A stretch of DNA of 64,000 nucleotides from Chloroflexota bacterium. Its GTDB lineage: Bacteria > Chloroflexota > Dormibacteria > CF-121. Below are positions 43,485 through 63,793 of the stretch, piece by piece. A program made the translations under genes and the position numbers. The notes beneath the pieces were generated by a model that was given only the letters and a program-made list of their open reading frames with translations, was not told the DNA's origin and ran no database searches. The stretch is taken from NCBI GenBank assembly GCA_005881215.1, contig VBDZ01000008.1, positions 2,275-66,274 of the forward strand. Reading direction: 5' to 3'. Each line of letters begins with the position of its first letter. Position 1 is the stretch's first letter.

Positions 43485-43508
43485 CCAGTCATCTCGTTAA
43501 AGACAGCA

Positions 43509-44309: not shown

Positions 44310-44403
44310 TCAACTCACCTCCTGAAATTCGGCGCCAGCGCCCAAAGCGAGACGCTCTTTCGGCTGATGTATCTAGAAAGGCACGCGCTTCCTTGCGCAC
44401 TGG

Positions 44404-44435: not shown

Positions 44436-44460
44436 CTGTTTTGCTCCCAGAAGGTGTCCC

Positions 44461-44640: not shown

Positions 44641-44817
44641 GCTAATTCACCTCCTTTGCGAGTAGATCGAACGGCCCCAGTTTCACACCGGCCCGAATTG
44701 AAGACAACGGACAGCCCGCCAAAGAACGGCGAAGATGTTTTGACGCCTTCGTAACAGCCGTCACTGTCTTACAGCGATCGTTACGAGTGGGCAGCAAAGC
44801 GCCGCGGACCCGAGCGG

Positions 44818-48262: not shown

Positions 48263-49479
48263 CCGGCGCCGATCGGGCCGCCCGGCTGCGCCGCCGTCAA
48301 CGGCTCTTCCTGATTTTCACCGCGGTGCTCTGCGTGGCCTACGCCCGCCAGCTGCTCACCTCGCCCACCGCCGGCCAGGATTTTCGCGCCTTCTTCGCCG
48401 CCGCCACCGTGAGCGCCCACGGCGGCGACCCCTATGACTGGACCATCCTGGGCCGGACCGAGGACGCGCTCTACAACGCCCCCATCCATGCCCGACCCGG
48501 TGATCCGCGCTACAACGATTTCCTTCCCTTTCCGGAAGGGCCCTGGCTCGCGCTCGGGCTGCAGCCGCTGACCGGGTTCCCCTGGCAGGTCGTCTATCCG
48601 CTGTTCGCCGGCGTGATGCTGCTGGCGATCGCCGCCGGCGCCTGGCTCGTCCTGCTGCGGCTCGGCTGGCCGCCGGCGCGGCGGCGGATCGCGGTGGCCG
48701 CGACCGTCCTCTCCCCCATCGCCTTCCTCAACGTTTTCCAGGGACAGGTCAGCGCGCTCGTCTTTCTCGGGTTTGCCGGCGCCTGGTATCTCGCCGGCCG
48801 CGGCCGGCCGGTGTGGGCCGGGCTGGTGCTCACCCTCGTCTGGATCAAGCCGAATCTCGGAGTGGCGCTGCCGCTGGTGCTGCTGCTGCTCGAGCCGGCG
48901 TCCGTCACCCGGTTGCTGCTGGGTTTCGGCGGCGGCAGCGTCGTCGCCTTCGCCCTGGCAGCCCTGGCGCTGCCCGGCGTCCTGTGGCACTGGGCCAATG
49001 AGCTGATCTCCCACTGGCGCGCGGTGCAGGGCACCCAACCGGACGTCGCCTCGATCCACAGCCTCTACTACCCGGCGCTGACCGGCCCGCTCAAAACCGT
49101 GGCGCTGGTCATCGTGCTGGCGGGCGGTGCCGCCTATACGGTCTGGGCCGTCCGCCGCGGGCAGCAGGCGCGCGCCCGCGGCCTGACGGTGTTGCTGCTG
49201 TGGTTCGCGCTGCTGCCCTATGTCCACTCCTTCGACGCCATCCTCTTGCTGCCGCTGGTCGTGTTCTTGCTCGGACCGGATCTGCGCGGCTGGGCGGATC
49301 CATTGACCGAGGTGGTGGTCTGGGCCTTCGCGATCCTGCCCTTTGGCTACTTCATCGGCTTGCGGCTTGGATTTTTCAACGGCTTTACCGCAGTGCCGGT
49401 CCTCCTGCTCCTGCTCGCCTGGCATCAGCGAGTGATCCGCGACCGGCCGCGCGTCGTGCCGGAGGCGGTCGCCGCATGA
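48259..49479 (+). CDS. DUF2029/GT87-like membrane glycosyltransferase
   Basis: In ORF 48172..49479. GTG 48259 overlaps the upstream stop (GTGA). Motifs GQDFRAFFAAATVSAHGGDPY and WIKPNLG. Confidence 0.8.
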   Translation: MTGADRAARLRRRQRLFLIFTAVLCVAYARQLLTSPTAGQDFRAFFAAATVSAHGGDPYDWTILGRTEDALYNAPIHARPGDPRYNDFLPFPEGPWLALGLQPLTGFPWQVVYPLFAGVMLLAIAAGAWLVLLRLGWPPARRRIAVAATVLSPIAFLNVFQGQVSALVFLGFAGAWYLAGRGRPVWAGLVLTLVWIKPNLGVALPLVLLLLEPASVTRLLLGFGGGSVVAFALAALALPGVLWHWANELISHWRAVQGTQPDVASIHSLYYPALTGPLKTVALVIVLAGGAAYTVWAVRRGQQARARGLTVLLLWFALLPYVHSFDAILLLPLVVFLLGPDLRGWADPLTEVVVWAFAILPFGYFIGLRLGFFNGFTAVPVLLLLLAWHQRVIRDRPRVVPEAVAA

Positions 49480-50789
49480 CGACCTGGTGGGGCATCCGGC
49501 GGCTCTACGAGCCGCGCTTTTTAGAGCGGATCCTCCTCCTGTTGCTCCTGGTCGCCGCCGCCTACTATGCCGTCTTCGCGATCGTCCAGTGGACGACCTT
49601 GACCCCGGAGGCGCTGCGGTTCGATTTCGCGAACTATTTCGGCGGCGCCCAGGCGGCCGCGCACGGCAGCGACGTCTACGCCGACTTCAAGCGGTCGTGG
49701 GGAACCGAGGCCTGGGTGGTCGCCTACATCTACCCGCCCTTCTTCGCCGAGCTGCTCGCGCCGCTGACGCCGCTCGGGCTGGTAGGCGCCGCGCGGGTCT
49801 GGCTGCTCGCGGTGCACGCCGCGTTCTTCGGCTCGCTGGCGCTGCTGCTGCGCCTCCATCCCGAGCTGTCGCGCGCCGGCCGTCTGGTGCTGCTGGTGGC
49901 CGCGCTCGGCTTCATGCCGGTGTACCTCAACCTGAAGTTCCAACAGGTGGCGACGGTGTGGCTGCTGCTGGTGACGGCCGCGCTCTGGGCCGCGCTGCGG
50001 CGACGGGACGGCCTGGCCGGCGGCTTCATCGCGCTGGCCGCGTCGCTCAAGGTCGCCCCCATCTTCCTGATTCCGCTCTTGGCCCGACTGGGGCGGCGGC
50101 GGGTGGCGATCGTGGGCGGCGGGCTGCTGCTGGTGGTGACCGTGGTCACCATGCTGGCGTCACCGGGCAGCTGGCAATTCTTCACCGTCGTGCTGCCGCG
50201 CATCGGCCTGGGAACGGCGAACTGGGACAACGGCTCGATCGACGGGCTGGTCAGCCGCATCGTGGTGCTGGCGCCGCACCTGCTCGGCGGCGCCACCCAG
50301 ACGGCGGCAAAAGTCGTGATTGCGCTGGCCGCGGTGAGCGTCATCGGCGTGACCATCTGGCTGGCGGGCCGGGCCGCGAGCCACGATGGATGGACGATCC
50401 GGCTCGGCGTCGCCGCCCTGATGACGTCGCTGCTGATCGTCAGCAGCGTGACCTGGCAGCATCACCTGGTCACCCTGCTGCTGCCGATGGCGACCGCGCT
50501 GGCGTGGATCAGCGCGCGACGGCCGGGGGCGCGCTACGGCTGGGCCCTGATGGCCGCCTATGGGGCGTGCTGGATCGACCGTCGGGCGTTTCCCTTACCG
50601 GCGGACCTCCAGGTGCATTCGGCGTCGCAGGGGGCGCTGGTGCTGGCCGGCACCTCGGTGAAACTGCTCGGCCTGCTGCTGCTCTGGGGGCTGCTACTCG
50701 AGATGCTGCGCCGCGAGCGCAAGCTGATGGGTGCGCTCAGGCGGCCTGGACGACCGGCGGCCGCCGATGCTGTTGCGCCCGCTGCCTGA
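49476..50789 (+). CDS. DUF2029/GT87-like membrane glycosyltransferase
   Basis: In ORF 49200..50789. ATG 49476 overlaps the upstream stop (ATGA). Motifs RFDFANYFGGAQAAAHGSDVY, YIYPPFFA and SLKVAP. Confidence 0.8.
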   Translation: MTTWWGIRRLYEPRFLERILLLLLLVAAAYYAVFAIVQWTTLTPEALRFDFANYFGGAQAAAHGSDVYADFKRSWGTEAWVVAYIYPPFFAELLAPLTPLGLVGAARVWLLAVHAAFFGSLALLLRLHPELSRAGRLVLLVAALGFMPVYLNLKFQQVATVWLLLVTAALWAALRRRDGLAGGFIALAASLKVAPIFLIPLLARLGRRRVAIVGGGLLLVVTVVTMLASPGSWQFFTVVLPRIGLGTANWDNGSIDGLVSRIVVLAPHLLGGATQTAAKVVIALAAVSVIGVTIWLAGRAASHDGWTIRLGVAALMTSLLIVSSVTWQHHLVTLLLPMATALAWISARRPGARYGWALMAAYGACWIDRRAFPLPADLQVHSASQGALVLAGTSVKLLGLLLLWGLLLEMLRRERKLMGALRRPGRPAAADAVAPAA

Positions 50790-51903
50790 AGCGCCACCCG
50801 TACCACAAGACGACCGCGGTCATCACGATGGGCCCCAGCGGCAGGCCGACGCCGTGAAGGTCGATCAGCAGCGCCAGGTCGATGAGCAGCAGGCCGGGGA
50901 TCGGGTTGGGCAGGCGGCCCTCGAAAAAAAGGTCGACCGCGAGCCACGCCGGCACCGCCAGCATCAGCAGATCATGGGGAAGCGCATGCGGAGAGGCCAG
51001 CAGCGACAGCGCGACCGCCAGGACGGCGAAGCCGGTGGTTGACGCCGGCCGCCGCCAGGCGGTCAGCCCCAGCGCCGCCAGCACCGCCAGGTAGACGGCG
51101 ATCGCGACCGCCGTCGCCGCCACGGCTGGGAGCGCCGGGCCGAGGACCCCGATCCAGGCCTCGTCGAGACGGATCGCCACCGCCTGGTTGGCGCGCAGCG
51201 CGTTGTGCACCATGGCGGCCATGCCACCGGCGCCGGCCGCCAGCGGGCTCATCAGGACGAGGGTGGCTGCGACGCCGGCGACCAGCAGCATTCGCCAACG
51301 CCGGGCCGCCAGCACGACCAGCAGGTACGCCGGCAGGTACTGCGGCTTGATCGCGAGCAGCGCGCCGCCGGCGGCCGCCAGCCCCCACCGGTCCCGGCTC
51401 AGCGCCGCGACCAGCAGCGCGCCACCGACAACCAGCAACGGAGTCACCTGTCCTTCGGTCAGCGCGGTCCAGGTGGGGACGGCGGCCAGCAGCCCCAGCA
51501 TGGCGAACGCCGGCGCCTTGCGGTCCAGCGGTCGCGCCCGCTGCAGGATGAGGACCGCCACCAGCAACAGCGCCGCGGCGACGATCTGCCAGACGCGAAA
51601 TGCGAGGTCGATCGAGAGCAGCGAGAGGGCGGCAAACGGCAGGGCGGCGACCAGCGGCAGGCTGAAGGGCAATCGGGGGTCGATCGCCCCGTCCGGCGCC
51701 ACCCGACGCATGGTGTCAGCGAGCGCGGCCTGCCGATAGGGGGCGGCGAAGTGGCCTTGTCGGACCAGCACGCCCGCGCTGTAGTTGATGGTGAAGTCGG
51801 AGGACAGCCGCGCCGCGCGCGGCTGCAGCAGGATCACGAGGAAGCCCGCCGCCGCCAGGGCGACGACCAGCGCCAGCATGGCCTGATGCAACGGTCGCCT
51901 CAC
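50737..51903 (-). CDS. DUF2029/GT87-like membrane glycosyltransferase
   Basis: In ORF 50737..52506. GTG 51903 overlaps the upstream stop (GTGA) and has an AGGTG RBS. Motifs SSDFTINYSAGVLVRQGHFAAPY and AIKPQY. Its 3' end overlaps the convergent gene by 53 nt. Confidence 0.75.
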   Translation of the reverse strand: MRRPLHQAMLALVVALAAAGFLVILLQPRAARLSSDFTINYSAGVLVRQGHFAAPYRQAALADTMRRVAPDGAIDPRLPFSLPLVAALPFAALSLLSIDLAFRVWQIVAAALLLVAVLILQRARPLDRKAPAFAMLGLLAAVPTWTALTEGQVTPLLVVGGALLVAALSRDRWGLAAAGGALLAIKPQYLPAYLLVVLAARRWRMLLVAGVAATLVLMSPLAAGAGGMAAMVHNALRANQAVAIRLDEAWIGVLGPALPAVAATAVAIAVYLAVLAALGLTAWRRPASTTGFAVLAVALSLLASPHALPHDLLMLAVPAWLAVDLFFEGRLPNPIPGLLLIDLALLIDLHGVGLPLGPIVMTAVVLWYGWRFRQRAQQHRRPPVVQAA

Positions 51904-53501
51904 GGTTGCACCTGGAAGACGGCCGCATCCCCCTCGCGGTCGACGATGCGCAGCCGCGGGTCGTCCCGCAGCCGCTGGACGAAGCCCGGATCCGTCGCCA
52001 GCACGTAATCGATGTGGTTCGCCTGAGCAAAGGCGGCGCGCTCGGCGGTTGACCAGCGGGTGAAGAAGGCCAGCGCCTGGTCGGCCTTGCGACCGGCGTC
52101 GATCGTCATTTCCGGATGCCCGGTGAAGGCGCGGGCGCCCGACTGCGCCGGGACGAAGATGCCGTCCAGATAGGTCGTCAGGACCACGTCTTGCGCGGTG
52201 ACCTGCGGCGCCAACCGAGCCAGCAGCGCGGCTTCGGCGCGGCTTTCGTACTCGGCTCGTGGATCCAACCGGAACGCGGCAATCCAGTATGGCTGCGTCA
52301 GGCTGAGGATGCCGTAAAAGCTCGACACCGCCACGGTGCTGACCAGCAGGCGTCGCCGCCACGCCACCGAACGGACGCCGCGGAGCATCGTGAGCAACCC
52401 CGGCGCGGCGCAGAGACCAAACGGCACCGAGCTGGCCATGAAGCTGCGTCCGAGGATGCCACTGATGCCGGGCGCAAACATGAAGACCGTCATGCCCGCA
52501 ATCCACAACGCGGGCAGCAGCAGATCACCGCGAAGGCGTCGCCGCCAGATGGCGATGACGATGAGGACCGTGGCGACCAGGTGCGACAGCACCAGGAAAC
52601 CGAACGGGTCTCCGACATCGAGCGCCGGGCGGATCACCCGCAAGGCGTCGGGGGCGGTGGCCCAAATCCACAGCAGGTAACCGAGGTAGGGCAGCTGCAG
52701 GGCGGCGCCCGCGACGGCAAACCAGATCGCGCGCCGGTGCCGGCGCGCCAGCGACCAGCCGAACAGGCAGGCCACGGCGAGCAGGGCGAGTTGCGGATAG
52801 ATCAACTGCAGCCCGAGGATGGCGCCCAGCCCACTGATGAGCACGCTTGCGGAGTCACGGTGACGCAGACGAAGACCAGCGGTCATGGCCCAGCACATCA
52901 ACGCCATCGCCCATGGCAGATGCGGGGCCATGCCGACCAGGTCAGCCACGCTGCTTCCCGGCGAGGTCATCTCGGTCGCGTGGCTGACGAACGGACCAAG
53001 GTGGATGTCGTGCGGGAGCAGCGCGCCGATCCCACCGCCCAGGATGCACAGCGCAAACGCCCAGCGCCTCACCAGTCGGGGGCGGAACAGCTCGGCGATC
53101 AGCAACCAGACCGAGCTCAGCAAGGCCGCGCCGGCCGCCAGCCGGCCGAGATGATAGAGCCAGGGACCGGTCGCCCAGCCAACCAGGTGGGCCGGCCACA
53201 GATACCAGGGATACAACACGATGCCGGGTAACGACTCCGAGCTGTAGGGCGAATGGAAGAGCCAGGCACCCTGCCACCCGGCGCGCCAGAGGGCCTGGTA
53301 GACCTCGGCGTCGCGGGCAATCACGACGTATCCCGTAAAAACGCTACCGGCCGGCGTCCGGATCCCGGCCAGCAGGATCGGTGGCATCGTCATCAGGCAG
53401 AGGGCGGCGAGGAACACGACGGACCGGGTAACGCGCAGCCGACGCGGCCGGGGCGACTCGTTGCCGGGCTCCTCGTACCGGCGCGGGCGCGCGAGCGCCA
53501 T
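51900..53501 (-). CDS. GT-C-like polytopic membrane protein, family 2 (ArnT/PMT-like; paralogue of 56096..57724)
   Basis: 533 aa. After TM1 it has FTGYVVIARDAEVYQALWRAGWQGAWLFHSPYSSE. It has many TM helices and a C-terminal soluble domain ending DREGDAAVFQVQP. Confidence 0.8.
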   Translation of the reverse strand: MALARPRRYEEPGNESPRPRRLRVTRSVVFLAALCLMTMPPILLAGIRTPAGSVFTGYVVIARDAEVYQALWRAGWQGAWLFHSPYSSESLPGIVLYPWYLWPAHLVGWATGPWLYHLGRLAAGAALLSSVWLLIAELFRPRLVRRWAFALCILGGGIGALLPHDIHLGPFVSHATEMTSPGSSVADLVGMAPHLPWAMALMCWAMTAGLRLRHRDSASVLISGLGAILGLQLIYPQLALLAVACLFGWSLARRHRRAIWFAVAGAALQLPYLGYLLWIWATAPDALRVIRPALDVGDPFGFLVLSHLVATVLIVIAIWRRRLRGDLLLPALWIAGMTVFMFAPGISGILGRSFMASSVPFGLCAAPGLLTMLRGVRSVAWRRRLLVSTVAVSSFYGILSLTQPYWIAAFRLDPRAEYESRAEAALLARLAPQVTAQDVVLTTYLDGIFVPAQSGARAFTGHPEMTIDAGRKADQALAFFTRWSTAERAAFAQANHIDYVLATDPGFVQRLRDDPRLRIVDREGDAAVFQVQP

Positions 53502-54820
53502 CAGGCCGCGAGCCGATCGGCCTGGTCGCTGCCGGCCGGGGCCAGGCTCCGGTCACCCAGCGGCCGGATGCACAGCAGGAGGGTGATGACGACCGCCAGG
53601 TAGTTGTCGTTGAAGAAGCGGGCAAAGAAGGTGAAGGCGAGCAGCAGGGCCGAGTAGCCCGCCATCCAGCGAGCGGCCGTCGGCCACCGGAGGAAGGCCC
53701 GCGCCCCGATCCACAGCACCGGGATCATCGCCGCCAGCTGGAAGACTCCGAAAGGAAAGGCGTCGGTTCGGTGGGCAACGAGATGGGTCTGGAAAAGGAA
53801 TTCGCCAAAACCGTAGCCGGCGATCGGATAGGCATCCGGGATGCCGCCGGCGGCGTACAGCACGGTGTCGGTCCAGAACGCCGACGGGTCGGCAAGGACA
53901 AACGGCGCCACGGTGGCCACCGGCACGATCGCGAGCGCCGCCACACTGAGCAGGACCTCGCGGATCGACCGGCTGTCGCGCCAGCGAAGGTAGAGCACCA
54001 GCAGCAGGAACGGCACCGCCACCCAGGCAAATGGCTTGAGCGCCGCGGCGACGCCCAGGGCGGCGGCGGCCAGCGTCGGGTGGCCGCGGGTGAGCAGGGC
54101 AAGACTCAGGAGCACCACCGCCAGGAACTCGATGTCGTTTCTGCCCGCCCACAGATACAGCGTGATCAGCGGGCTCAGGTAGACAGCGGTAAGCAGCATG
54201 ACGCGACGTTCGGCGTGGACCGGAAGGGCGGCGATGGCGCCCAGGCCGAGACAGGCGAAGGCGATCAGGACGATGCGGTAATCGAAGGGCAGGCCCAGCG
54301 CACCGGTCACCAGCCGGAAGGGAACGCCTACCAGCACCGTCAGGGGGTAGTACGCCATGTGGTGGAGAGCCGGGTTGCCGCCCGGGGTCAGGTCCCAGGG
54401 GAAGCTGGCCATCGGCGTGCTCGACCAGTCCACCCCATAGATCGGCCGGCCCGCGAGCAGGCGGTCGATCGCCGATTCGACTTGCAGCAAGCCGTCGTGC
54501 TCCATCGTCAACCCCATGCGCGGCCGTTGCACGATGCCGGTCAGGGTGGGGCCGATCGCCACCAGCACGCCCAACGACCCGACGCACCAGAGTTTTAACC
54601 GCCAGTGGCCGGCGACCCGGACGACCAACGCGAGCAGCGCGACGTAGGCCACCGTCACACTCAAAGGCAACCACCAGCCGAAATGCCCCCGGAGCATCCA
54701 CAGGACCAGCACCTGGAGACCACCGAGGACGCCAAGGTAGGCGGTCGGAGTCGTCAACCGGGCGGCCACCCGGGTCAGTGGACCCGCCGCTGGACCGCTC
54801 CGGCGTCGGGCGCCGGTCAT
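53501..54820 (-). CDS. DUF2029-like polytopic membrane protein (divergent member)
   Basis: 439 aa: EHDGLLQVESAIDRLLAGRPIYGVDW, HMAYYPLTV and ALKPFAW. Its stop overlaps the next ATG by 1 nt. Confidence 0.7.
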   Translation of the reverse strand: MTGARRRSGPAAGPLTRVAARLTTPTAYLGVLGGLQVLVLWMLRGHFGWWLPLSVTVAYVALLALVVRVAGHWRLKLWCVGSLGVLVAIGPTLTGIVQRPRMGLTMEHDGLLQVESAIDRLLAGRPIYGVDWSSTPMASFPWDLTPGGNPALHHMAYYPLTVLVGVPFRLVTGALGLPFDYRIVLIAFACLGLGAIAALPVHAERRVMLLTAVYLSPLITLYLWAGRNDIEFLAVVLLSLALLTRGHPTLAAAALGVAAALKPFAWVAVPFLLLVLYLRWRDSRSIREVLLSVAALAIVPVATVAPFVLADPSAFWTDTVLYAAGGIPDAYPIAGYGFGEFLFQTHLVAHRTDAFPFGVFQLAAMIPVLWIGARAFLRWPTAARWMAGYSALLLAFTFFARFFNDNYLAVVITLLLCIRPLGDRSLAPAGSDQADRLAA

Positions 54821-54878
54821 GACGACGGTGTAACGCCCGGTGTGAGGAACCCCTTCTGCCGGCCGTTATAGCTGGGTC

Positions 54879-56117
54879 GTGTCGACCCGTCCCTCCGCGG
54901 CCCGGGCAACACCGGCGACGCCCACCGTCGGGAGAATCCGGCTGGCCTTCGTCGCCCAGGCCGGCCTGGTCGGGTCAGCCGCCGCGATCTATGCCATCGT
55001 TCTCAGCCAGGCCGGTCCAATGCACCAGGACCTCGGCGCCTACCTGGCTGCGGCGCGGGCCATCTGGCACGGGCAGCCGCTCTATTCGACATTCCTGCAC
55101 CATCCCTTCCCTGACCCGACCCTGCGGCCGGCCTATATCTACCCGCCCGTTTTCGCGGTCCTGGTTGCCCCGCTCGGTCTGCTGTCCGACTTCGTTGCCG
55201 GCGTCGTCTGGTTGCTGATCGGGCAGGTGGCGTTGGCGGCGGCCCTGGTCATCGTCTTGCGTTCCTGCCGTCCGGCCTCCTGGGCCATCACCGCGGTGCT
55301 CTGCGCCACGCTGACCTTCTATCCGCTGTGGGTGGATGCCGCCCAGGGCCAGGCCAACCTGCTGGTCATGCTGCTCGTCACCATCGGGGTCGTCGGGATC
55401 GCGCAGGGCCGGCCTCGGGCCGCGGCCGCCCTCGGCGCGGCGGCGGCGTTGAAGCTGACCCCCGCCATCCTGCTGGTCTGGCTCCTGGTCGACCGCCGCG
55501 TTCGAGAAGGCGCCTGGATGGTGGCCGGCATGGCGGCCGTAACCGGCGTCGGCGCCCTGCTCCGCTTTCAAGACACCCTGGCGTTTTTCGGCCAGGTCGT
55601 GCCCGCCCTGGCATCGGGCACGGCGTATTACGCGAACCAGTCGCTCGCTGGGATCCTGCGCCGGGTCGTCACCCCGAACCCGTACACCCGGCCGTGGACC
55701 GTCTTCGGCTGGCCATTCCTGTTGCTGGCCGTGATCGCCATCGGCCTGACCGTCTGGTGGTTCTGGCGGACGCGCGGCCATTCATCGCTGGCTCGTTCGG
55801 CGGCCTTCATTCCGCTGCTGCCGCTGTTATCGGCGGTGACCTGGCCGCACCACCTCGTCATCCTGCTTCCCGTGATCTGGCTGAGCATCGTTGCGATTGC
55901 GGCCCGCGAGTGGCCGCTGGCGCCGACGCTGGTTCTGGCCGCGGTGCTGATCGTCTTCGACGTGGTCTCGCGCTGGCCGGTCAGGCCCGGCTTCAACCAG
56001 CCCGGGTTCAAGCTCGCCCAGACCGCCGATCCCGCCGTGTTCCTGGTCGCCAACTCGCTGTTCTTCGGGACCCTCATCCTGTTCCTGGCTTCGCCATGGC
56101 TGCTGCGCTCCCGCTGA
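54879..56117 (+). CDS. DUF2029/GT87-like membrane glycosyltransferase
   Basis: 412 aa, GTG start. Motifs HQDLGAYLAAARAIWHGQPLY, YIYPPVFAV and ALKLTP. Confidence 0.8.
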   Translation: MSTRPSAARATPATPTVGRIRLAFVAQAGLVGSAAAIYAIVLSQAGPMHQDLGAYLAAARAIWHGQPLYSTFLHHPFPDPTLRPAYIYPPVFAVLVAPLGLLSDFVAGVVWLLIGQVALAAALVIVLRSCRPASWAITAVLCATLTFYPLWVDAAQGQANLLVMLLVTIGVVGIAQGRPRAAAALGAAAALKLTPAILLVWLLVDRRVREGAWMVAGMAAVTGVGALLRFQDTLAFFGQVVPALASGTAYYANQSLAGILRRVVTPNPYTRPWTVFGWPFLLLAVIAIGLTVWWFWRTRGHSSLARSAAFIPLLPLLSAVTWPHHLVILLPVIWLSIVAIAAREWPLAPTLVLAAVLIVFDVVSRWPVRPGFNQPGFKLAQTADPAVFLVANSLFFGTLILFLASPWLLRSR

Positions 56118-57724
56118 TTCGGCCGGTGCCGCCACCGTCGGCGCGGCCTCGGCACGCCCCGCGCTTCGCGCTGGTCTTCGCGATCGCGGTTGCCATCGCC
56201 TCGCTGGTTCCCTACCTGCTCGCCTACCTGTGGACGCCGCCCGGTCATCACTTCGCCGGTTTCTTCTTCATCGCCGACGACGCCACCACCTACCTGGCGA
56301 AGATGCGCCAGGGCGCGCAGGGATCCTGGTTGTGGAACGACCCCTACACCAGCGAGGCGCACGGCGGCGTCTTTCTGTTCGGCTTCTACCTGCTGTTCGG
56401 CCAGCTGGCGGGCCTGCTGCATCTGCCCCTCATCGCCGCCTATCACCTCGCCCGGGTGTCGGGAGCGATCGCGCTCGTGCTGTCGGCCGATCGGCTCTGC
56501 CGCCGCCTGCTCGCGCCCGAGCTTCGCCGGCTGGCGCTGGCGCTCGTGATCCTGGGATCTGGCGTCGGCGTCCTCGCCCAGGTCGCCGGCAATCCCTCCA
56601 TCTTCGGCAGCAAGCTCGAGGCGCTCGACCTCCACCTCCCCGAGCTGAGCGGCTGGTACTCCATCCTGGCGATCCCGCATTTCGCCTGGGCCACCGCGCT
56701 GATCATCGTCGCGCTGCTCGGCCTGCTCGAGATCGCCGACCGGCCGCGCTGGCAGTCCCTGGCGGTGACGTCGATGGCGTTGATCGCGCTGACGGCCATC
56801 CATCCGCAGATGATCCCGGTGCTCGGCATCATCTGGTGCGCCTACCAGGCGGTGCTGGCCTGGTGGGGGCGGCGGCCGGGGTGGCGGGCGCTGGCGGCAC
56901 AGACCGTTCCCTTCGTCGCCACCATTCCGCTGCTCGCCTACAACGCCTGGATCCTCTTTCGCGATCCAACCATCGCCGAGTGGGCGCGCCAGTGGCGACA
57001 CCAGGCGCCCGGGCCACTCAGCCTGGGGCTGAGCCTCGGCCTGCCGCTGCTGCTGGGCATCGCGGGGATGGTACTCGCCTGGCGCCGCCGCGACCAGGGG
57101 CTGGCGCTGCTGATGGTCTGGCCGCCGCTGGTGTTCCTGTTGCTCTACCTGCCCAACGTCGCGAACATCCAGCGCCGCCTGCTGGATGCCCTCTACGTCC
57201 CGCTCGGCATCCTGGCGGCGGTCGGGCTGCAGGCGCTGGTCCACCGGTTCAACCCGGTCCAGGCTCGCCGCATCAAAGCCGCTCTGCTCACTGTCTGCTG
57301 CCTCTCATCGGCGATCGTGCTGGCCATCGCGCTGCGCTTCGCCTCGGGCGCGTTTGCTGAGGCGTACATCAGCAACGACGCCTGGCACGCGATGCAGTGG
57401 CTCTCGGCCCATCACCAGCCGGCAGACCGCGCCCTTTCCTCGCCGCAGGCCGGGCAGCTGCTGCCCGCCTGGTCGGGCGTCAGCGTCTACGTGGGGCACT
57501 ACAGCGAGACGCTGAATTATTTCCAGAAGCTCCGCAACGAGGCCGCGGTGCTGCGGTCGGATGCCGCGGCGTCGACCGTGCGGTCGTTTCTTTCGGCCAA
57601 TGGCGTCACCCTGCTCTACTGGGGGCCCGACGAGGCAGCCACCGGCTTCCAGCCCCAGCTCCAACCCTACCTCGAGCCGGTGCACCGGGATGGCAGCGTC
57701 ACGATCTACCGGGTGCTGCCCTAG
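56096..57724 (+). CDS. GT-C-like polytopic membrane protein, family 2 (ArnT/PMT-like)
   Basis: In ORF 55328..57724, starting at ATG 56096 (or GTG 56126). FAGFFFIADDATTYLAKMRQGAQGSWLWNDPYTSE. The C-terminal soluble domain ends HRDGSVTIYRVLP. Confidence 0.8.
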   Translation: MAAALPLIRPVPPPSARPRHAPRFALVFAIAVAIASLVPYLLAYLWTPPGHHFAGFFFIADDATTYLAKMRQGAQGSWLWNDPYTSEAHGGVFLFGFYLLFGQLAGLLHLPLIAAYHLARVSGAIALVLSADRLCRRLLAPELRRLALALVILGSGVGVLAQVAGNPSIFGSKLEALDLHLPELSGWYSILAIPHFAWATALIIVALLGLLEIADRPRWQSLAVTSMALIALTAIHPQMIPVLGIIWCAYQAVLAWWGRRPGWRALAAQTVPFVATIPLLAYNAWILFRDPTIAEWARQWRHQAPGPLSLGLSLGLPLLLGIAGMVLAWRRRDQGLALLMVWPPLVFLLLYLPNVANIQRRLLDALYVPLGILAAVGLQALVHRFNPVQARRIKAALLTVCCLSSAIVLAIALRFASGAFAEAYISNDAWHAMQWLSAHHQPADRALSSPQAGQLLPAWSGVSVYVGHYSETLNYFQKLRNEAAVLRSDAAASTVRSFLSANGVTLLYWGPDEAATGFQPQLQPYLEPVHRDGSVTIYRVLP

Positions 57725-57749: not shown

Positions 57750-58511
57750 CTAGGCCGACGCGCGTCGCTCGCCCGCTTTGTTGACGCCCGGGGTCGGGTG
57801 CGCGCGGACCCGATTCGGGATGGCGAGCAATTCGAGGAACATCGTGGCGGAGTGCCGGATCGGATGGACCCGGCTCTGCGGCGAGTTGATCCAGCGGGTC
57901 GGCACCTCGACGATCCGGTAGCCCGCCCGCTTCGCCCGGTAGAGCACCTCGACGTCGAAGCCGAAGCCGCGGGTCTGCAGCGAAGGAAAGACTCGCTCCG
58001 CGACTTCCGCCGTGAAGGCTTTGAAGCCGCACTGGGTGTCGGCGACGCCGCCGAAGACGAAGATCCGCACCAGCCGGTTGAAGATCTTCCCCATCGTCTC
58101 CCGGTACCAGGGCTGGTGCAGCTCGACCTGCGAATCGCGCAGCCCGCGGGAGGCGATCGCCACCCCCGCCCCGCCGCGGAGCGGCCGCAGCAGCTTTTCC
58201 AGGTCGTCGATGGGCACGCTGAGGTCGGCATCGCTGAAGACCCGGAAGCGACCGCGGGCGGCCGCCATGCCGAGTCGCACCGCAGCCCCCTTGCCGCCGT
58301 TGCGCTCGGCCGCGACCAGCCGCAGCTGGGGCCAGCGCGCCGCGCGCTGGCGAACGATCTCCGCGGTACCGTCCCGGCTCCCGTCGTCGACCACGATCAC
58401 CTCGGCCGGGGTGCCGGTCGTGGCCAGATAACGCTCGACCCGGTCGAACGTCGCCGGCAGCCGGAGCGCCTCGTTGTACGCCGGAATGATGATCGAGATT
58501 TCCGGCGTCAT
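57750..58511 (-). CDS. GT2 family, Dpm1/ALG5-like polyprenyl-phosphate glycosyltransferase
   Basis: 253 aa: ISIIIPAYNE, VVDDGSRDGT, NGGKGAAV, FSDADLS. The ATG overlaps the upstream stop (ATGA). Confidence 0.85.
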   Translation of the reverse strand: MTPEISIIIPAYNEALRLPATFDRVERYLATTGTPAEVIVVDDGSRDGTAEIVRQRAARWPQLRLVAAERNGGKGAAVRLGMAAARGRFRVFSDADLSVPIDDLEKLLRPLRGGAGVAIASRGLRDSQVELHQPWYRETMGKIFNRLVRIFVFGGVADTQCGFKAFTAEVAERVFPSLQTRGFGFDVEVLYRAKRAGYRIVEVPTRWINSPQSRVHPIRHSATMFLELLAIPNRVRAHPTPGVNKAGERRASA

Positions 58512-59230
58512 GCGGCGTTCTCCACTTTGCGCATCTCGGCGCGGAAGGCGAACAACTCTCCGAACGCTCGCAGCACCACCCGCGGGTTGGCACCCGTCTG
58601 CTTCCCGGATCGGCGTGGGTAGTGATGCACCGGGACTTCCACCACCCGGGCGTGCATCTGGCGGGCCAGCACCAGCAGCTCGGTGTTGACCAGGGCGCCT
58701 TCGGCATGCAGCACCATGCCGGTGAGCAGGTCACGGCGGATCAGCTTGAAGGCGCAGTTCACGTCCCGGACCAGCCGGCCGAACAGCAGGCGGACCAGGG
58801 TGAAGAATGCCCAGGCATTGAGTCGGCGGGTCAAGGGATCGCGCCGGTGCCGGCGGTAGCCGGCCACGATGTCCGCCTCCGCCGCCCGCGCCAGCAGCAG
58901 GCCGATCTCCGCCGGGTCGAACTGGTTGTCGGCATCCATCAGGAAGACCCAGGGCAGGCGGGCCGCGTCGAATCCCGATCGGACGGCGGCACCATAGCCG
59001 CGATTGACCGGGTGGCGGACCACCCGAAGGTTGGAGTGCACCACCTTCAGCCGCTCCAGCACCGCCGGCGTGTCGTCGCGGCTGCCGTCGTCGACCACGA
59101 TGATCTCGAAGCTGCGAGCCTGAGCGGCCAGCGCCTCGGCGGTGCGGCCGACCGCTTGCTTCAGGTTGGTGGCCTCGTTGAAGGCGGGCATGACGGCGCT
59201 GATGTCCATCGACGGCGCAACCCGTCTCAT
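58508..59230 (-). CDS. GT2 family, Ppm1/Dpm1-like polyprenyl-phosphate glycosyltransferase
   Basis: 240 aa: ISAVMPAFNE, VVDDGSRDDT, NRGYGAAVRSG, LMDADNQFD. The ATG overlaps the upstream stop (ATGA). Confidence 0.85.
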   Translation of the reverse strand: MRRVAPSMDISAVMPAFNEATNLKQAVGRTAEALAAQARSFEIIVVDDGSRDDTPAVLERLKVVHSNLRVVRHPVNRGYGAAVRSGFDAARLPWVFLMDADNQFDPAEIGLLLARAAEADIVAGYRRHRRDPLTRRLNAWAFFTLVRLLFGRLVRDVNCAFKLIRRDLLTGMVLHAEGALVNTELLVLARQMHARVVEVPVHHYPRRSGKQTGANPRVVLRAFGELFAFRAEMRKVENAA

Positions 59231-60768
59231 GGTTGGAAGCCTACTCGCGTGAACACCGTCGCCACCCCGTCCCGGGTCATCAGCCGCCAGCCGGGATCAC
59301 GCTGCAGCAAACCGACCAGCGGATGGGCGCTGGGCACGACGATCGCATCGGGATTGGCCCGGGCGATCACGGCCGGCCAGCCCTCGGCCAGGTAGCTCAC
59401 CTGGAGGTACTCGCTGAAGATCCGCGAGCCGTAGACCTCGACCCGGCCGTCGATGAAGACCCGTCCGCCGCCGGGGTACAGGCGCCAGACGAGGTAGCCG
59501 CCGTAGTCGTAGTAGTTGAAGATCCGCAGCGGCCGGCCGATTCGCTCCAGCGCCGCGGTCGATTCCACCGGCAGCACCACCCTGATGGCGGCCGCCTGGT
59601 TGGCGGGTTGCAGGTTGGGCAGCGCGCGGTAGCCCAGCATGCCGGCGCCGACCGCCAGCAGGAGGGCCAGGTTGATGGCGCCGAGCGCCACGCCCGGCCC
59701 GGCGGGCCGAGCCGGCGACCAGCGGAATGCCGCCGCGCTCATCGACCGCTGGGCCACCGGCGCCAGTTCGCCCGCGAGCTCGAGCAGCGCCTGGGCGCAG
59801 CGGCCGGCCAGCGGCGCGGCGCCCAGGATGAAGAGCGGCACGTTCCGTTGGGAGGCCAGCCCCAGGTAGAGCAGGGCGAAGGCCAGCAGCCATTCACTCG
59901 TCCGGGCGGTCACCCGGCGGGTCGCCAGCCCGGCAAGCAGCAGGAAGAGAAAGACCTCGAGCATCAGCCCCGCGGTGGAGTGGAAATCCGGCGAGGCCCA
60001 CTCCTGGATGTTGTTCTGGATCAAGGGCGAGGTCAGGGTGCCCAATGGGAAGAGGACCGTCTGGATGCCAAAGGGGTTGACGAGGGCGAGCGCTGTGGCG
60101 GCGGCGACCGCCAGGCCCAATGCGCGGATCCGCCGCAGCGGCATCGGGGCGGCGCGGTGAAGCCAGGCGTCGAGGCCTTCGCCGGCGACGAACAACAGGC
60201 TGATGATCACGCCGACCAGGAAACCCGAGTGCAGGTTGGCCCAGAGCCAGATGAAGGGCGGGAGCATCCACGCCCGCAGGTGACGGTCGCGATAGCGGGC
60301 CAGCCCGACCAGCAGCACGCCGGTGAAGAGCAGGTTGAGCAATTGCGGGCGCGCCCCCCAGGCGGTCGAACCGGCGAGCGCCCCGACGAGCGTGAGCCCC
60401 ACCGCGGCGCTCGGGTTAAGGCCGGTCCGCCGGAGCAGGTGATAGAGGCAGAGCGCGGCCCCCGTCACCGCGAGGGCCGCGATCGCGACCAGCAGCGGCA
60501 GGCCGCCGAGCTGGTAGAGGCCGTACATGCCGAGATCGGCGAGCCACTCATGCATCACCCACGGTTGGCCGGCGGCGCTGAACGAATAGACGTCGACGTG
60601 CGGAATCGACGCCGTGGTCAGGATCAGCCGCCCGTTGGCGAGATGCCACCAGAGGTCGGGATCGAGCGGCGGGACTGCGGCGAGGCTGAAGATCGCCACG
60701 AACAGCAGGCCGCGCAGCACCAGGGCACTGGTCAACCGGCGCAGCAAGCCGGCCAGGGCAGGCATCAT
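59227..60768 (-). CDS. GT-C-like polytopic membrane protein, family 1 (paralogue of 46628..48262)
   Basis: 513 aa. After TM1 it has DPDLWWHLANGRLIL (from 60663). YYDYGGYLVWRL (59491-59514 encodes YYDYGGYL) lies at the start of the C-terminal soluble domain. Confidence 0.8.
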   Translation of the reverse strand: MMPALAGLLRRLTSALVLRGLLFVAIFSLAAVPPLDPDLWWHLANGRLILTTASIPHVDVYSFSAAGQPWVMHEWLADLGMYGLYQLGGLPLLVAIAALAVTGAALCLYHLLRRTGLNPSAAVGLTLVGALAGSTAWGARPQLLNLLFTGVLLVGLARYRDRHLRAWMLPPFIWLWANLHSGFLVGVIISLLFVAGEGLDAWLHRAAPMPLRRIRALGLAVAAATALALVNPFGIQTVLFPLGTLTSPLIQNNIQEWASPDFHSTAGLMLEVFLFLLLAGLATRRVTARTSEWLLAFALLYLGLASQRNVPLFILGAAPLAGRCAQALLELAGELAPVAQRSMSAAAFRWSPARPAGPGVALGAINLALLLAVGAGMLGYRALPNLQPANQAAAIRVVLPVESTAALERIGRPLRIFNYYDYGGYLVWRLYPGGGRVFIDGRVEVYGSRIFSEYLQVSYLAEGWPAVIARANPDAIVVPSAHPLVGLLQRDPGWRLMTRDGVATVFTRVGFQP

Positions 60769-60807: not shown

Positions 60808-61530
60808 TTAGCGAGGCTCGCGTAAGACGCGCAGCACGAAGCGCGGCAGGGCCAGCATCCGCCGCCAGCGCCACGGCTCCCGGCCCAGCCGGTGCAGCCA
60901 CTCGAGCCCGTGCTCACGCATCCAGGGCGGCGCCCGCCGCGACCGCCCGGAGATGAAGTCGAAGGCACCCCCCACGCCCATGCCGACGATCGCGCCGGAG
61001 CCGGCCAGGTTGCGCGCCAGCCAGGCTTCCTCGGCGGCGGCGCCGTAGGCGAGGAAGAGCAGCTGGGCGCCACTCGAGCGAATCGCCTGGGTGATCCCCG
61101 CATCGTTGAACCGGTCGGGCGACCCCGCGTCGGTCCCGGCAAGCTGAAAGCCGGGGAATCGCTCCCGCAACGCCGCGCCCGCTGCCTCGGCGACCCCCGG
61201 CGCGCCGCCGAGGAAAAAGAATCGCCAGCCCTCGCTTCCGCCCCGCGCGGCCAGCGATTGGAGCAGGTCAACCCCGGCCACCCGGCCGGGCAGAGGATGG
61301 CGGATCCGGCGGGCCGCCCACAGCACGCCGGCGCCGTCGGCCAGCGCCAGGTCCGCGCGCGCAAGCACGGCGGCAAACTCCGGATCGCGGGCGGCCCGCA
61401 TGATCCGTTCGGGGTTCACGCTGATGATCAATCGCGGCCGACGTTCCGCGATCGCCCGGGTCACCCAGTCCACCGCCTCGGCTTCTGTCATCGGGTCGAT
61501 CGGGACCCCGAGGAGGGTGAAACGGGTCAC
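60808..61530 (-). CDS. WecB/TagA/CpsF family glycosyltransferase (GT26)
   Basis: In ORF 60808..61767. GTG 61530 overlaps the upstream stop (GTGA). VTRFTLLGVPIDPMTEAEAVDW..., GVDLLQSL, FFLGGAPGVAE. Confidence 0.85.
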   Translation of the reverse strand: MTRFTLLGVPIDPMTEAEAVDWVTRAIAERRPRLIISVNPERIMRAARDPEFAAVLARADLALADGAGVLWAARRIRHPLPGRVAGVDLLQSLAARGGSEGWRFFFLGGAPGVAEAAGAALRERFPGFQLAGTDAGSPDRFNDAGITQAIRSSGAQLLFLAYGAAAEEAWLARNLAGSGAIVGMGVGGAFDFISGRSRRAPPWMREHGLEWLHRLGREPWRWRRMLALPRFVLRVLREPR

Positions 61531-62666
61531 GCCGCGAGTGCCTGCCGGTAGACCTCCGCGGTCTCGCGCCCCAGGCGCTCGACACTGAACGCCGTCGATC
61601 GTTTCAGCCCGGCCTCGCGCAGCCGGCGCTGCTCGTTGTCGAATCGAAGGAGTCGCTCTATCGCCTGGGTGAGTTCTTCCACGCTTTCGGTGCGGAGCAC
61701 CACGCCGGCCTGGTCGACCAGTTCGACCAGCGCGTCCGCCGACGACACGATCACCGGCGCTCCGCACGACATCGCTTCCAGAACCGGGAGGCCAAAGCCC
61801 TCGTAACGCGAGGGATAGCTGAAGACGGCGGCGCCGCTATAGATCGCGGGCAGGACGTCTCGCGGCACGTAGTCGAGCGCGATCACATGTCCGCGTGGTC
61901 CGGGCAGCCGCAGCTGTCGGGCGAGACGTTCGGCCCCGCGGTTGACGCGGCCCACGAAGACGAGCGCCGAATCGTCGGCCAGGTCGGGAGGCAGCAGCTC
62001 GTAGGCCGAGCGCAGCCGTGGCAGGTCCTTGCGCGGGTCGACGGTGCCGACATAGAGGACGTAGCGCTCGGGAAGACCGTACTGCTTGCGGACAGTCGCG
62101 ATCTCTTCCGCCGGTCGCGGCGTGAAGATGGCGTCGGCGCAGAGGGGGACATAGCTGACCCGCTCCGGCGCGATATGGTACAGGTCGATGACCTGGCGGC
62201 AGACCGCTTTCGAGGAGACCATCACCCGGCGTGCCCGGCGAATACTCGGCGGGCCAAGGGTCCCGAAGTACCAGCGGGCCCGTGGATGCATGTCTTCGGG
62301 ACGAGCCCGATAGGCGAGGTCGGGCACGGTCAGCACCAGCGGTGCGGCATTGAGCAGCGGCGCCACCCCGAGCACCGAATGCAGCAGGCGCAGCGATTGA
62401 GGATAGGCGCCAAACCGCCAGGGCAGCGACCATTGTTCGCGGCCAAGCCGCAAGCCACGCGGCACCTTCGCGAAGGGCACCAGCCGATGACCGCGGGCCG
62501 CGTCGCCCAGTTCGGACATTACGTCGGCGGGAACGAGCACGTCAACCGAGACGCCGACCGCGCGCAAGCCGCGCAGGATATGCAGCGCGTGATGCTCGAG
62601 GCCGGTGAAGGGTTGCGCCGCAAACAGCAGATCGACCGCAATCCCTTCGGCGGCGACATTCGACAC
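61527..62666 (-). CDS. GT4 family (GT-B) glycosyltransferase
   Basis: 379 aa, with the E-x7-E region PSRYEGFGLPVLEAMSCGAPVIVS. Confidence 0.88.
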   Translation of the reverse strand: MSNVAAEGIAVDLLFAAQPFTGLEHHALHILRGLRAVGVSVDVLVPADVMSELGDAARGHRLVPFAKVPRGLRLGREQWSLPWRFGAYPQSLRLLHSVLGVAPLLNAAPLVLTVPDLAYRARPEDMHPRARWYFGTLGPPSIRRARRVMVSSKAVCRQVIDLYHIAPERVSYVPLCADAIFTPRPAEEIATVRKQYGLPERYVLYVGTVDPRKDLPRLRSAYELLPPDLADDSALVFVGRVNRGAERLARQLRLPGPRGHVIALDYVPRDVLPAIYSGAAVFSYPSRYEGFGLPVLEAMSCGAPVIVSSADALVELVDQAGVVLRTESVEELTQAIERLLRFDNEQRRLREAGLKRSTAFSVERLGRETAEVYRQALAA

Positions 62667-62704: not shown

Positions 62705-63793
62705 GTGATCATCGGCATCGACGGGACGCCGGCGGTGCGGCGCGTGGCGACCGGAACCGAGATCTATGCCAGGAGCATCATCGAGGCGCTGGCCAGATTG
62801 AGGGGCGAGCGCACGATGCGCGTCTTCGCCAACGCCGTCGAGCGGCCGTTATGGCTGGCGCCTGGCGTGGAATGGCGTGGCATCCCCTTTCCGCGCTTGT
62901 GGACCCACTGGCGGCTGCGACAGGCGCTGCGACGCGAACGCCCCGACGTGACGTTTATTCCCAGCCACGTACTGCCGGTCGCGCTGGGGCTACGTGCAGT
63001 CGTCACCATCCACGACCTCGGACACCGGCGGGAGCCGCGATCCTACACCCACGCGGCGCGCTGGTACCTGGAAGCCACGACCCGCTACGCCGCCCGCCGG
63101 GCGAGTCGGTTGATCGCCGTGTCGCAATCGACCGCGGACGACCTGGCTCGCTACTACGGGGTGCCGGGCGGGCGCATCGCGGTGGTGCATTCTGGGATCG
63201 GTCCCCGGTTCAACCCCCAGAGCCCTCGCACCGTGCAGGAGGTTACCCATCGTCTTGGCATTTCCGGCCCCTACTTTCTCTACGTCGGGCGCAACCACCC
63301 GCGAAAGAATCTGCCGATGTTGCGACGCGCCTTCGACGACGCGCGGCGGCGCGGACTGGAGGCGACGCTGGTGCTGGCCGGACCTGGTCACGATCCGGCC
63401 TCGAGCGATCCGGTGCGGGTGCTGCCGTACATACCGGACGGCGAGCTGCCGGCGCTCTACGCGGGCGCGCTGGCCCTGACGCTGCCCTCGCGGTTCGAAG
63501 GTTTTGGCTTTCCGGCGCTGGAGGCGATGGGCTGCGGCACGGCGGTGATCGCCTCGACCGCCGGCGCGCTCCCCGAAATTGTTGGCACCGCCGGGATTCT
63601 GCTGAGCCCCGATGATGCCGGCGCCTGGAGCCAGGCCCTGCTCGAGCTGGCCGGCGACCCCGCGCTGCAGCGCCGGCTGATCGCAGCCGGCAGTGCGCGC
63701 GCCGCCACGTTTACCTGGGAGGCCGCGGCCGAGAAGACCTGGCGGGTGCTCGAAGCCGTCGCCCGGCAGGGTCAGCCGGCGACCGCGGCGTAA
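62705..63793 (+). CDS. GT4 family (GT-B) glycosyltransferase
   Basis: 362 aa, GTG start: PSRFEGFGFPALEAMGCGTAVIAS. Divergent from 61527..62666 across a 38-nt spacer. Confidence 0.88.
   Translation: MIIGIDGTPAVRRVATGTEIYARSIIEALARLRGERTMRVFANAVERPLWLAPGVEWRGIPFPRLWTHWRLRQALRRERPDVTFIPSHVLPVALGLRAVVTIHDLGHRREPRSYTHAARWYLEATTRYAARRASRLIAVSQSTADDLARYYGVPGGRIAVVHSGIGPRFNPQSPRTVQEVTHRLGISGPYFLYVGRNHPRKNLPMLRRAFDDARRRGLEATLVLAGPGHDPASSDPVRVLPYIPDGELPALYAGALALTLPSRFEGFGFPALEAMGCGTAVIASTAGALPEIVGTAGILLSPDDAGAWSQALLELAGDPALQRRLIAAGSARAATFTWEAAAEKTWRVLEAVARQGQPATAA

Follow-up and report, generated by a model that had tools for sequence, protein, structure and literature searches.

The window analysed here, a stretch of 64,000 nucleotides with a G+C content of 66% from contig VBDZ01000008.1 of a Chloroflexota bacterium (Dormibacteria, CF-121), encodes two large membrane proteins, which we call A and B, with motifs reminiscent of the oligosaccharyltransferases (OSTs) STT3 and AglB. 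Are A and B divergent bacterial OSTs, as proposed in a reading made from the sequence only, or do they represent another kind of membrane glycosyltransferase of the GT-C type? Most glycoconjugates outside the cytoplasm are made or decorated by GT-C enzymes, and characterising a further family has each time defined a new CAZy class. Here we show that A and B are paralogues with a predicted GT-C_A fold and that the signatures which define an OST are absent from them. We consider it reasonably probable that both belong, with intact active sites, to a very large unannotated GT-C_A family and act as polyprenyl-phosphate-sugar-dependent transferases.

Paralogues A and B, their predicted fold and their family

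The open reading frames (ORFs) of A and B were found where the sequence-only reading had placed them (Table 1), and the claimed paralogy was confirmed. BLASTP aligned the two proteins over about 497 residues with 30% identity (E = 3e-58), and hence they are paralogues well beyond chance. Every motif peptide that had been quoted was recovered, namely PLDPDLWWHLANGRLIL...VDVYSFSAAGQPW and FNYYDYGGYLVWRLYPG in A, and VTDPDFWWHVTTGNWIL...TDLFTYTVSGHRW and NVYGWGGYLIYRLYG in B, the last of each set lying in the C-terminal domain; the first motif did fall directly after the first transmembrane helix (TM1) in the topology derived from the AlphaFold2 (AF2) model. Orthologues of B are mostly about 505-530 aa long. 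Because many of them have only 505-509 aa, the real start of B may be further downstream than that of its longest ORF, at TTG 46673 or GTG 46745.

The AF2 model of A, with a predicted local distance difference test score (pLDDT) of 77 and a predicted template modelling score (pTM) of 0.80, showed 11 long membrane helices followed by a C-terminal alpha/beta domain of about 130 residues. When the model was compared with the PDB using Foldseek, only GT-C_A enzymes were retrieved at E < 0.1. The seven top matches were yeast and human STT3 (E 3.5e-6 to 2.3e-5, query-normalised TM-score 0.54-0.58), followed by ArnT (E 6e-4, 0.43), PglB (E 1.3e-3, 0.47) and DPY19 (E 2.4e-3, 0.51), while AftA, AftD, ALG3 and AftB gave weaker E values and lower TM-scores; ArnT, PglB, DPY19, AftA and AftD were also matched at a Foldseek probability of 1.00. 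A polytopic membrane domain, a first external loop bearing Asp and similarity to solved GT-C_A structures, by which the GT-C_A superfamily is recognised, are all present in A, and the earlier description of these proteins as GT-C-like was thereby borne out. So was the caution attached to it, that acidic first loops occur in other GT-C families as well: the structural matches include the other GT-C_A families, and GT-C enzymes generally have acidic residues in this loop.

When the N-terminus was placed inside, every conserved signature residue came to lie in a loop predicted on the outer face. Lys and Arg abound in the short inner loops, as fits the positive-inside rule, and the C-terminus lies outside in the predicted topology. 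The second motif is located about 37 residues past the last predicted transmembrane helix, within the first strand and helix of the C-terminal domain. As modelled, this conserved outer-face layout would correspond to the standard GT-C active site, with the acid(s) in the first loop and basic phosphate binders at the membrane edge.

The size of the family became apparent when 1.84 billion cluster representatives (50%-identity clusters) were searched exhaustively with a profile: 34,500 relatives passed E <= 0.001, and 9,075 of these also E <= 1e-30. Most have a length of 470-550 aa and align end to end. Every name attached to the members was 'hypothetical protein'. The members are spread over Dormibacterota, Chloroflexota, Acidobacteriota, Armatimonadota, Actinomycetes/Acidimicrobiales and one archaeal-looking contig. 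Candidatus Dormibacteraeota or Dormiibacterota are the names carried by the closest relatives in the databases. Searched as single sequences, A and B had no match in Pfam, NCBIfam or the PDB sequences, and two family profiles likewise found none in the PDB. With 41 diverse members, no Pfam model was matched, whether of a GT-C family or of any other.

Conservation was counted in an alignment of 146 members mutually less than 50% identical, using the numbering of A. The residues D36/D38, W41/H42, D59, W70, W75, R140, W176/N178/H180, P232, E256/W257/P260, R308 and G423/G424/Y425 were near-invariant, while H73 and E74 were conserved less strictly (116/146). The signature of the family reads D36-P-D38-x-W-W41-H42-L-x-x-G46, P56, D59, W70-x-x-H73-E74-W75-L and W137-G-x-R140-P-Q142 in the N-terminal half; W176-x-N178-L-H180-G-G-F, N231-P232, I254-x-E256-W257-x-S259-P260-[DN]-F-H and S306-x-R308 in the middle; and F417-N418-x-Y420-x-W422-G423-G424-Y425-L-I-W-R-L-Y-P and V437-F-I-D440-G-R442-A-D444 in the C-terminal domain. 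In the first-loop motif D38 was kept in 145 members, G46 in 144, W41 and H42 in 139 each and D36 in 130; the aspartates of this D-P-D are presumed to be the catalytic acidic residues of A. The motif in the loop between TM7 and TM8 was conserved to a similar extent (E256, W257 and P260 in 140 members each, S259 in 123). This loop, which bears E256, dropped below pLDDT 50 at residues 258-262 of the A model and might, by analogy only, resemble the catalytic loops of OST and ArnT in being mobile. The motif at the start of the C-terminal domain showed the counts N418 128, Y420 136, W422 114, G423 144, G424 144 and Y425 139.

Comparison with oligosaccharyltransferases

The likeness of A and B to the OSTs STT3, AglB and PglB (GT66, Pfam PF02516) has several sides. 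Besides the GT-C_A fold, in which STT3 gave the best Foldseek matches, an acid-Pro pair and an aromatic-rich helix directly follow TM1 in both groups, STT3 reading FDPWFNYR (FDPWFNYRAT) and the present proteins LDPDLWWHL (LDPDLWWHLAN). An external loop with a conserved Glu, flexible in OSTs, may have its counterpart in the E256 loop of A with its low pLDDT. The external alpha/beta C-terminal domain has the order strand, aromatic-x-aromatic-G-Y helix and strand-D-G/N, as in AAWWDYGYQI...TLVDNN of STT3. The STT3 motifs on which the sequence-only reading had relied were found in yeast chain 6c26_A as HEFDPWFNYRAT and AAWWDYGYQ. The STT3/AglB likeness proposed in that reading stood as far as the structural matches and the near-invariant acidic D-P-D loop are concerned, but not for the signatures that define an OST, and the suggestion that A and B are divergent OSTs is opposed by the missing profile match, the number of transmembrane helices and the lack of a conserved W-W-D.

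Neither A nor B matched PF02516 at E <= 10, none of the 41 diverse members did so at E <= 0.1, and family profiles found no OST among the PDB sequences at E <= 10. When the family was aligned with an OST profile by hhalign, the probability was 1-2.4% and the alignment was non-colinear, resting on a spurious 'WGGY' in a transmembrane helix of STT3. The OST profile, made from yeast STT3, C. lari PglB and close fungal STT3s, was shallow, and in a calibration such shallow profiles detected no cross-family GT-C link at all (GT87 with OST, proteins C/D of the window with GT87, and others, all below 3%). The negative profile results therefore rule out membership or close kinship, not remote common ancestry. 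The 11 membrane helices predicted for A fall short of the 13 that make up the N-terminal domain of PglB and AglB (PMC10859629). The C-terminal domain of the family has about 130 aa as against 230-450 aa in OSTs, no DK/MI motif is evident, and the partners of A are presumed polyprenyl-monophosphate sugar synthases, not a full lipid-linked oligosaccharide pathway with a flippase.

The W-W-D of the WWDYG signature binds the sequon Ser/Thr and is functionally essential in OSTs. YYDYG of A had been proposed to stand at the WWDYG site. Its colinear position received some support, with weak scores, but the residues corresponding to W-W-D vary in the family. A pentad of the type aromatic-aromatic-D-aromatic-G was present in only 8 of the 146 diverse members, all within the clade of A, and the first aromatic in just 10. 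The residue at position 421 varies (N in 36, G in 32, D in 27, A in 11 and E in 10 members), the commonest pentad is SYNWG and the family norm S-Y-N-W-G-G-Y. Close orthologues of A have [YF]YD[YF]G without exception (118/118), whereas A-type orthologues about 40% identical and in the same operon context read FYSFG, EYKYG, DYSYG or SYEYG. B itself reads VYGWG and B-type proteins [VAQ]YGWG. YYDYG was dropped as a hallmark of the family, being confined to the shallow clade of A.

The profiles of the C-terminal domain of A/B and, independently, of C/D aligned colinearly and in one register to residues 489-571 of STT3, at an hhalign probability of 1-5%. The alignment covers a FREAYYWL helix and pairs FNYYDYGGYL with AAWWDY-GYQI, VFIDGR with TLVDNN, and ARANPDAIVV with KEHDVDYVLV, with weak scores throughout. 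When the C-terminal domain was modelled in isolation, Foldseek matched it over its full length only to the minimal C-terminal domain of AglB-S1 and AglB-S2 from A. fulgidus (TM-score 0.39-0.40). These matches were not significant (E 0.3-0.7), and the motif segment fell below pLDDT 50 out of context. The YxxGGY segment probably takes the same architectural position as WWDYG, and the C-terminal module with the position of its aromatic-Gly motif is probably common to OSTs and this family, and likely also to those other GT-C_A enzymes whose periplasmic domains are similar. We read YxxGGY as a structural motif, not as a sequon-binding WWDYG, and would not file A and B under GT66.

Gene neighbourhoods, proposed sugar donor and proposed function

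WecG, A and two GT2 genes form one minus-strand operon in the window (Table 1). WecG is separated from A by 39 nt, and at each of the two later junctions the stop and start codons overlap (ATGA). The order WecG-A-GT2 is kept in about 35 Dormibacterota loci; the related loci were gathered with one family alignment, which returned mostly Dormibacterota and Acidobacteriaceae. Since the WecG ORF overlaps the GT4 gene, the true start of WecG is probably downstream of 61767. The best NCBIfam matches of the GT2 proteins included ArnC (1.2e-25), PpgS, AglJ, Dol-P-hexose transferase and PgfS; as all of them lie below the curated cut-offs, the class of the two proteins is presumptive, and judged by sequence both would be polyprenyl-phosphate sugar synthases. 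A small GT2 gene also adjoins the family gene in Chloroflexota, in the order GT2, S-adenosylmethionine-dependent methyltransferase (soluble, Methyltransf_23), family gene, and in an Acidimicrobiales contig. Locus L091 has the order family gene, methyltransferase, GT2, epimerase, and locus L081 a GT2 fused to GtrA_DPMS_TM together with PMT_2 GT-C genes. A distant Dormibacteria genome (L087, 15220-17503) has an LPG_synthase_TM gene, whose product resembles the flippase domain of MprF, between two GT2 genes and thus offers a candidate flippase for a lipid-linked sugar; no counterpart was found in the window.

Table 1. Features of the window, with positions counted from its first nucleotide
Feature	Position	Strand	Remarks
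GT87, sixth gene	29597-30886	+	far from the main cluster, beside an L-asparaginase II gene
Tad pilus cluster with HisKA_3 kinase	36582..45903	-	
CpaF-like (T2SSE) ATPases	36582-37820 and 40695-42185	-	
TadB/C	38811-39737 and 39741-40694	-	
CpaE/TadZ-like ParA ATPase fused to response regulator	42216-43484	-	
RcpC	43566-44309	-	
Flp pilin	44461-44640	-	59 aa; cleavage motif G/MVEYALIL (cleavage at the slash); ...EEGQG/MVEYALILVLIAVVV...
HisKA_3 kinase	44818-45903	-	between flp and the glycosylation cluster
PEMT/ICMT-like membrane methyltransferase	46003..46668	+	Pfam PEMT 2.9e-12; isoprenylcysteine-methyltransferase-like, E 1e-9; directly upstream of B
Paralogue B	46628..48262	+	544 aa as longest ORF
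B, first-loop motif	46826-46858	+	equivalent of A residues 36-46
B, TM7-TM8 loop motif	47480-47506	+	equivalent of A residues 254-262
B, C-terminal domain motif	47918-47962	+	equivalent of A residues 417-431; LNVYGWGGYLIYRLY
Block of five GT87 genes and D	48172..56117	both	Pfam GT87 1.7e-7 to 1.7e-35
GT87 genes of the block	48172-49479, ~49487-50789, 50737 to ~52000, 53501-54820, 54879-56117	+, +, -, -, +	
Protein D	51900-53501	-	large polytopic membrane protein; no Pfam or NCBIfam match
Protein C	~56165..57724	+	~519 aa; frame from G+C at third codon positions (GC3); no Pfam or NCBIfam match
GT2, second	57750..58511	-	253 aa; AglJ / Dol-P-hexose-transferase-like (Pfam, NCBIfam); ATGA overlap with preceding GT2
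GT2	58508..59230	-	240 aa; ArnC/PpgS-like; Pfam Glycos_transf_2 1.8e-29; start overlaps A stop (ATGA)
Paralogue A	59227..60768	-	513 aa; GT-C_A-fold (predicted) membrane glycosyltransferase; 11 predicted transmembrane helices and ~130-aa C-terminal alpha/beta domain
A, C-terminal domain motif	59476..59520	-	residues 417-431, F-N-Y-Y-D-Y-G-G-Y-L-V-W-R-L-Y; start of C-terminal domain
A, TM7-TM8 loop motif	59983..60009	-	residues 254-262, I-Q-E-W-A-S-P-D-F; external loop
A, first-loop motif	60631..60663	-	residues 36-46, D-P-D-L-W-W-H-L-A-N-G; first extracytoplasmic loop
WecG/TagA/CpsF-family (GT26) glycosyltransferase	60808..61767	-	directly upstream of A; Pfam Glyco_tran_WecG 1.9e-54, NCBIfam
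GT4 glycosyltransferase	61527..62666	-	upstream of WecG
GT4 glycosyltransferase	62705..63793	+	divergently transcribed

The pairing of a small GT2 synthase gene with an adjoining GT-C gene is known from the ArnC/ArnT, GtrB/Gtr*, CsbB/YfhO and GT136 systems. ArnT is the next-best structural family after STT3, and GT136 also has 11 transmembrane helices with an external C-terminal domain. Unclassified GT-C enzymes from such synthase/flippase/GT-C systems founded the CAZy family GT136 in 2024 (PMC11127046). In contrast to these systems, A and B have no sequence similarity to the GT83, PMT_2, YfhO or GT136 models, the operon of A holds two GT2 genes, and no flippase gene was recognised in the window cluster.

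B belongs to a region (46-61 kb) with genes for nine large polytopic membrane proteins, A included; five of the nine can be recognised as GT-C enzymes (GT87), and the two presumed GT2 synthases are encoded there as well. The PEMT-like ORF overlaps the longest ORF of B, and PEMT-B pairing was also seen in the Dormibacterota loci L058, L064, L077 and L087. C and D are 29% identical (E 4e-33) and make a second paralogous pair, with the common N-terminal motif 'PPG..F.G...IA.DA..Y.A..R.G.QG.WL...PY.SE'. In the C-terminal domain they are homologous to A and B (hhalign 95%, E 3.7e-8), and relatives of C/D are found alongside the A/B family in loci of Dormibacterota and Chloroflexota; C and D are probably another unannotated GT-C family. 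The GT87 proteins (PimE-like mannosyltransferases) are GT-C enzymes of the same cluster and presumably draw on a common polyprenyl-phosphate sugar pool. However, A and B have no Pfam GT87 match, the GT87 proteins lack the C-terminal domain, and hhalign of the family against the GT87 set of the window gave only 0.6%.

From fold, signature and gene context together we infer the activity, donor type and acceptor of A and B as follows. The cytoplasmic GT2 proteins (ArnC/DPM1/AglJ-like) would charge polyprenyl phosphate with a sugar, the product would be flipped across the membrane, and the GT-C protein would move the single sugar to an acceptor on the outer face. The aspartates of the first external loop may act as a base or coordinate a metal, the phosphate may be held by Arg/His/Asn residues, and the small C-terminal alpha/beta domain, which starts with F-N-x-Y-x-W-G-G-Y, would pack onto the membrane domain. 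We prefer single-sugar monophosphate donors to en bloc transfer of an oligosaccharide because of the ArnC/DPM1-like GT2 synthases in the gene context. The acceptor of A is probably the glycan begun by the co-operonic WecG/TagA and GT4. For B, the acceptor would be the product of the GT87/GT-C cluster beside the Tad/Flp locus, possibly the pilus itself.

Several observations weigh against this proposal. OSTs, the enzymes nearest in structure, take their glycans from diphosphate-linked donors. WecG/TagA and GT4, makers of diphosphate-linked glycans, are also in the operon of A, so that a diphosphate-linked donor, with chemistry like that of an OST, ligase or polymerase, is conceivable. No GtrA, MATE or SMR flippase was seen among the ORFs scanned at 44-64 kb, where small ORFs were not searched exhaustively, and family members in loci L083, L085 and L092 are not accompanied by glycosylation genes. 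Diphosphate chemistry could take two forms. A and/or B might be true divergent OSTs, transferring a polyprenyl-diphosphate oligosaccharide en bloc to Asn with YYDYG acting as WWDYG. STT3 subunits at the top of the Foldseek list, the retention of [YF]YD[YF]G among the close orthologues of A, the colinearity, with weak scores, of the motif region with AAWWDYGYQI...TLVDNN...DVDYVLV of STT3, the AglB-S domains as sole full-length matches of the isolated C-terminal domain, and a diphosphate-linked glycan which WecG and GT4 could make all agree with this. We nevertheless regard it as very unlikely, given a family in which 41 members failed to match PF02516, PDB profile searches found no OST and hhalign reached 2.4%, a membrane domain of 11 helices and not 13, a C-domain match that was not significant (E 0.3), a W-W-D conserved neither in the family nor in the A-type orthologues of about 40% identity (B having VYGWG), no evident DK/MI motif, and tightly coupled partners that are presumed GT2 synthases of the monophosphate-sugar type. 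Alternatively, A might be a polymerase or ligase of a diphosphate-linked envelope glycan, which attaches or polymerises the repeat unit built by WecG and GT4; its place in one operon with WecG/TagA near the GT4 genes and the conserved outer-face Arg and His, which could bind a diphosphate, would fit such a role. Wzy, WaaL, SEDS and LCP proteins have other folds, though, the structural matches of A were all GT-C_A transferases, and the two GT2 synthases would be left partnerless, which makes this role for A extremely improbable.

Linkage of the family to Tad/Flp pili

B is two genes away from flp, with the Tad genes immediately upstream, a linkage that the sequence-only reading had not raised. 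In Dormibacterota, including the distant L087 and L088, the order is TadB/C-CpaF-CpaE-RcpC-Flp-HisKA_3, then PEMT-B-GT-Cs. In about 22 Acidobacteriaceae loci the family gene immediately precedes flp, with which it shares the strand, and rcpC, cpaC, tadZ and cpaF come next. In Chloroflexota, flp was within a few kb of the family gene in two loci: L089 has GT2, methyltransferase, GT2, unknown membrane proteins, the family gene, a Mannosyl_trans2 GT-C, a GerE/HisKA_3 system and Flp, and L065 two flp genes near two tandem family genes. The Flp orthologues in L087, L088 and L089 were called as Flp_Fap (PF04964), and the mature part of the window Flp ends in ...NVFCNISGGLGQ, with an N-I-S sequon. 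In locus L093, which looks archaeal (FBPase_3, DUF371 and a class III signal peptide among the neighbours), a PMT_2 GT-C gene precedes the family gene. Directly behind the latter (7572-12146) come genes for two Flp-like class III pilins (KGQ/TALEY..., cleavage at the slash), a 242-aa polytopic protein, which may be a prepilin peptidase, and about seven minor-pilin-like proteins. One of the two pilins has two N-S-T sequons, and the minor-pilin-like proteins are rich in N-x-S/T.

Some further features of these loci were recorded. The Acidobacteriaceae loci (L046-L080, about 6001-13400) carry a SpoIIE/FHA phosphatase, GT87, two to three copies of a 338-aa membrane protein, 'c0', the family gene, flp, rcpC, the secretin gene cpaC, tadZ and cpaF. 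The c0 protein has no Pfam match and is GT-C-like, with 'HADPYD' after its first transmembrane helix; another ORF in these loci, 'c9', looks like a shadow ORF. In Chloroflexota L089, a HisKA_3 kinase and a GerE regulator also flank flp.

The best-known precedent for a pilin-linked GT-C enzyme is TfpW of P. aeruginosa group IV, a pilin arabinosyltransferase with 11 predicted transmembrane helices and a cytoplasmic N-terminus, in which periplasmic loop 1 bears a DDX motif and the C-terminal domain is periplasmic; its gene lies immediately beside that of the major pilin (bioRxiv 10.1101/2020.04.19.049825). By description, the present family is similar in its 11 helices, inside N-terminus, acidic loop-1 motif and external C-terminal domain. 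It differs in having a small alpha/beta C-terminal domain with no TPR Pfam match in A and B, whereas TfpW has a TPR C-terminal domain and an Emb-like Pro motif. TfpW also acts on a type IVa pilin and its gene is downstream of pilA, whereas the pilins here are of the Flp/Tad type and the family gene is upstream.

The substrate of B-type and related members might be an Flp/Tad pilin or some other part of the Tad apparatus, which they would glycosylate on the outer face; the GT87 and other GT-C enzymes encoded nearby would then lengthen the glycan. This would refine the function proposed for B rather than exclude it. Family genes beside flp/Tad genes in Dormibacterota, Acidobacteriaceae, Chloroflexota and the archaeal-looking L093 point to such a role, as does the 11-helix GT-C TfpW encoded beside pilA. 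On the other hand, many members, A included, have no pilin genes nearby, and the linkage amounts to only about four independent events because the Acidobacteriaceae loci form one syntenic lineage. An N-x-S/T sequon was present in just 2 of the 29 linked Flp pilins, and was therefore dropped as evidence of N-glycosylation; no conserved acceptor site is evident, some mature Flp sequences, as in L087, lack Ser/Thr altogether, and adjacency could instead mean co-regulated surface or adhesion functions. In view of the members without pilins, the single Acidobacteriaceae event and the lack of a conserved acceptor site, we treat the pilin as a hypothetical acceptor and a pilin-directed role as possible but rather doubtful. 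A stronger version, in which the whole family would be ancient OST-related pilin glycosyltransferases dedicated to Flp/Tad (archaeal Epd-like) pilins, which moved with the filaments between archaea and bacteria and add the first sugar, appears unlikely. Under it, the first sugar might be attached at a non-canonical site, proposed because some linked pilins lack Ser/Thr, and GT87/GT-C enzymes would extend the glycan. If it were true, the Tad pili of the soil phyla Acidobacteriota, Dormibacterota and Chloroflexota would be glycosylated by previously undescribed machinery.

For A and B themselves we retain the function of polyprenyl-phosphate-sugar-dependent transferases proposed above. They represent a very large family, devoid of Pfam, NCBIfam or PDB coverage and of a functional name, whose predicted fold is nearest to the catalytic subunit of N-glycosylation, and its motif set could seed a new family model that would name tens of thousands of 'hypothetical proteins'. 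The family also bears on how the C-terminal module of OSTs relates to simpler GT-C enzymes. The STT3-like fold together with the repeated Flp/Tad linkage provides a testable lead on Tad pilus glycosylation in abundant, poorly studied soil bacteria.

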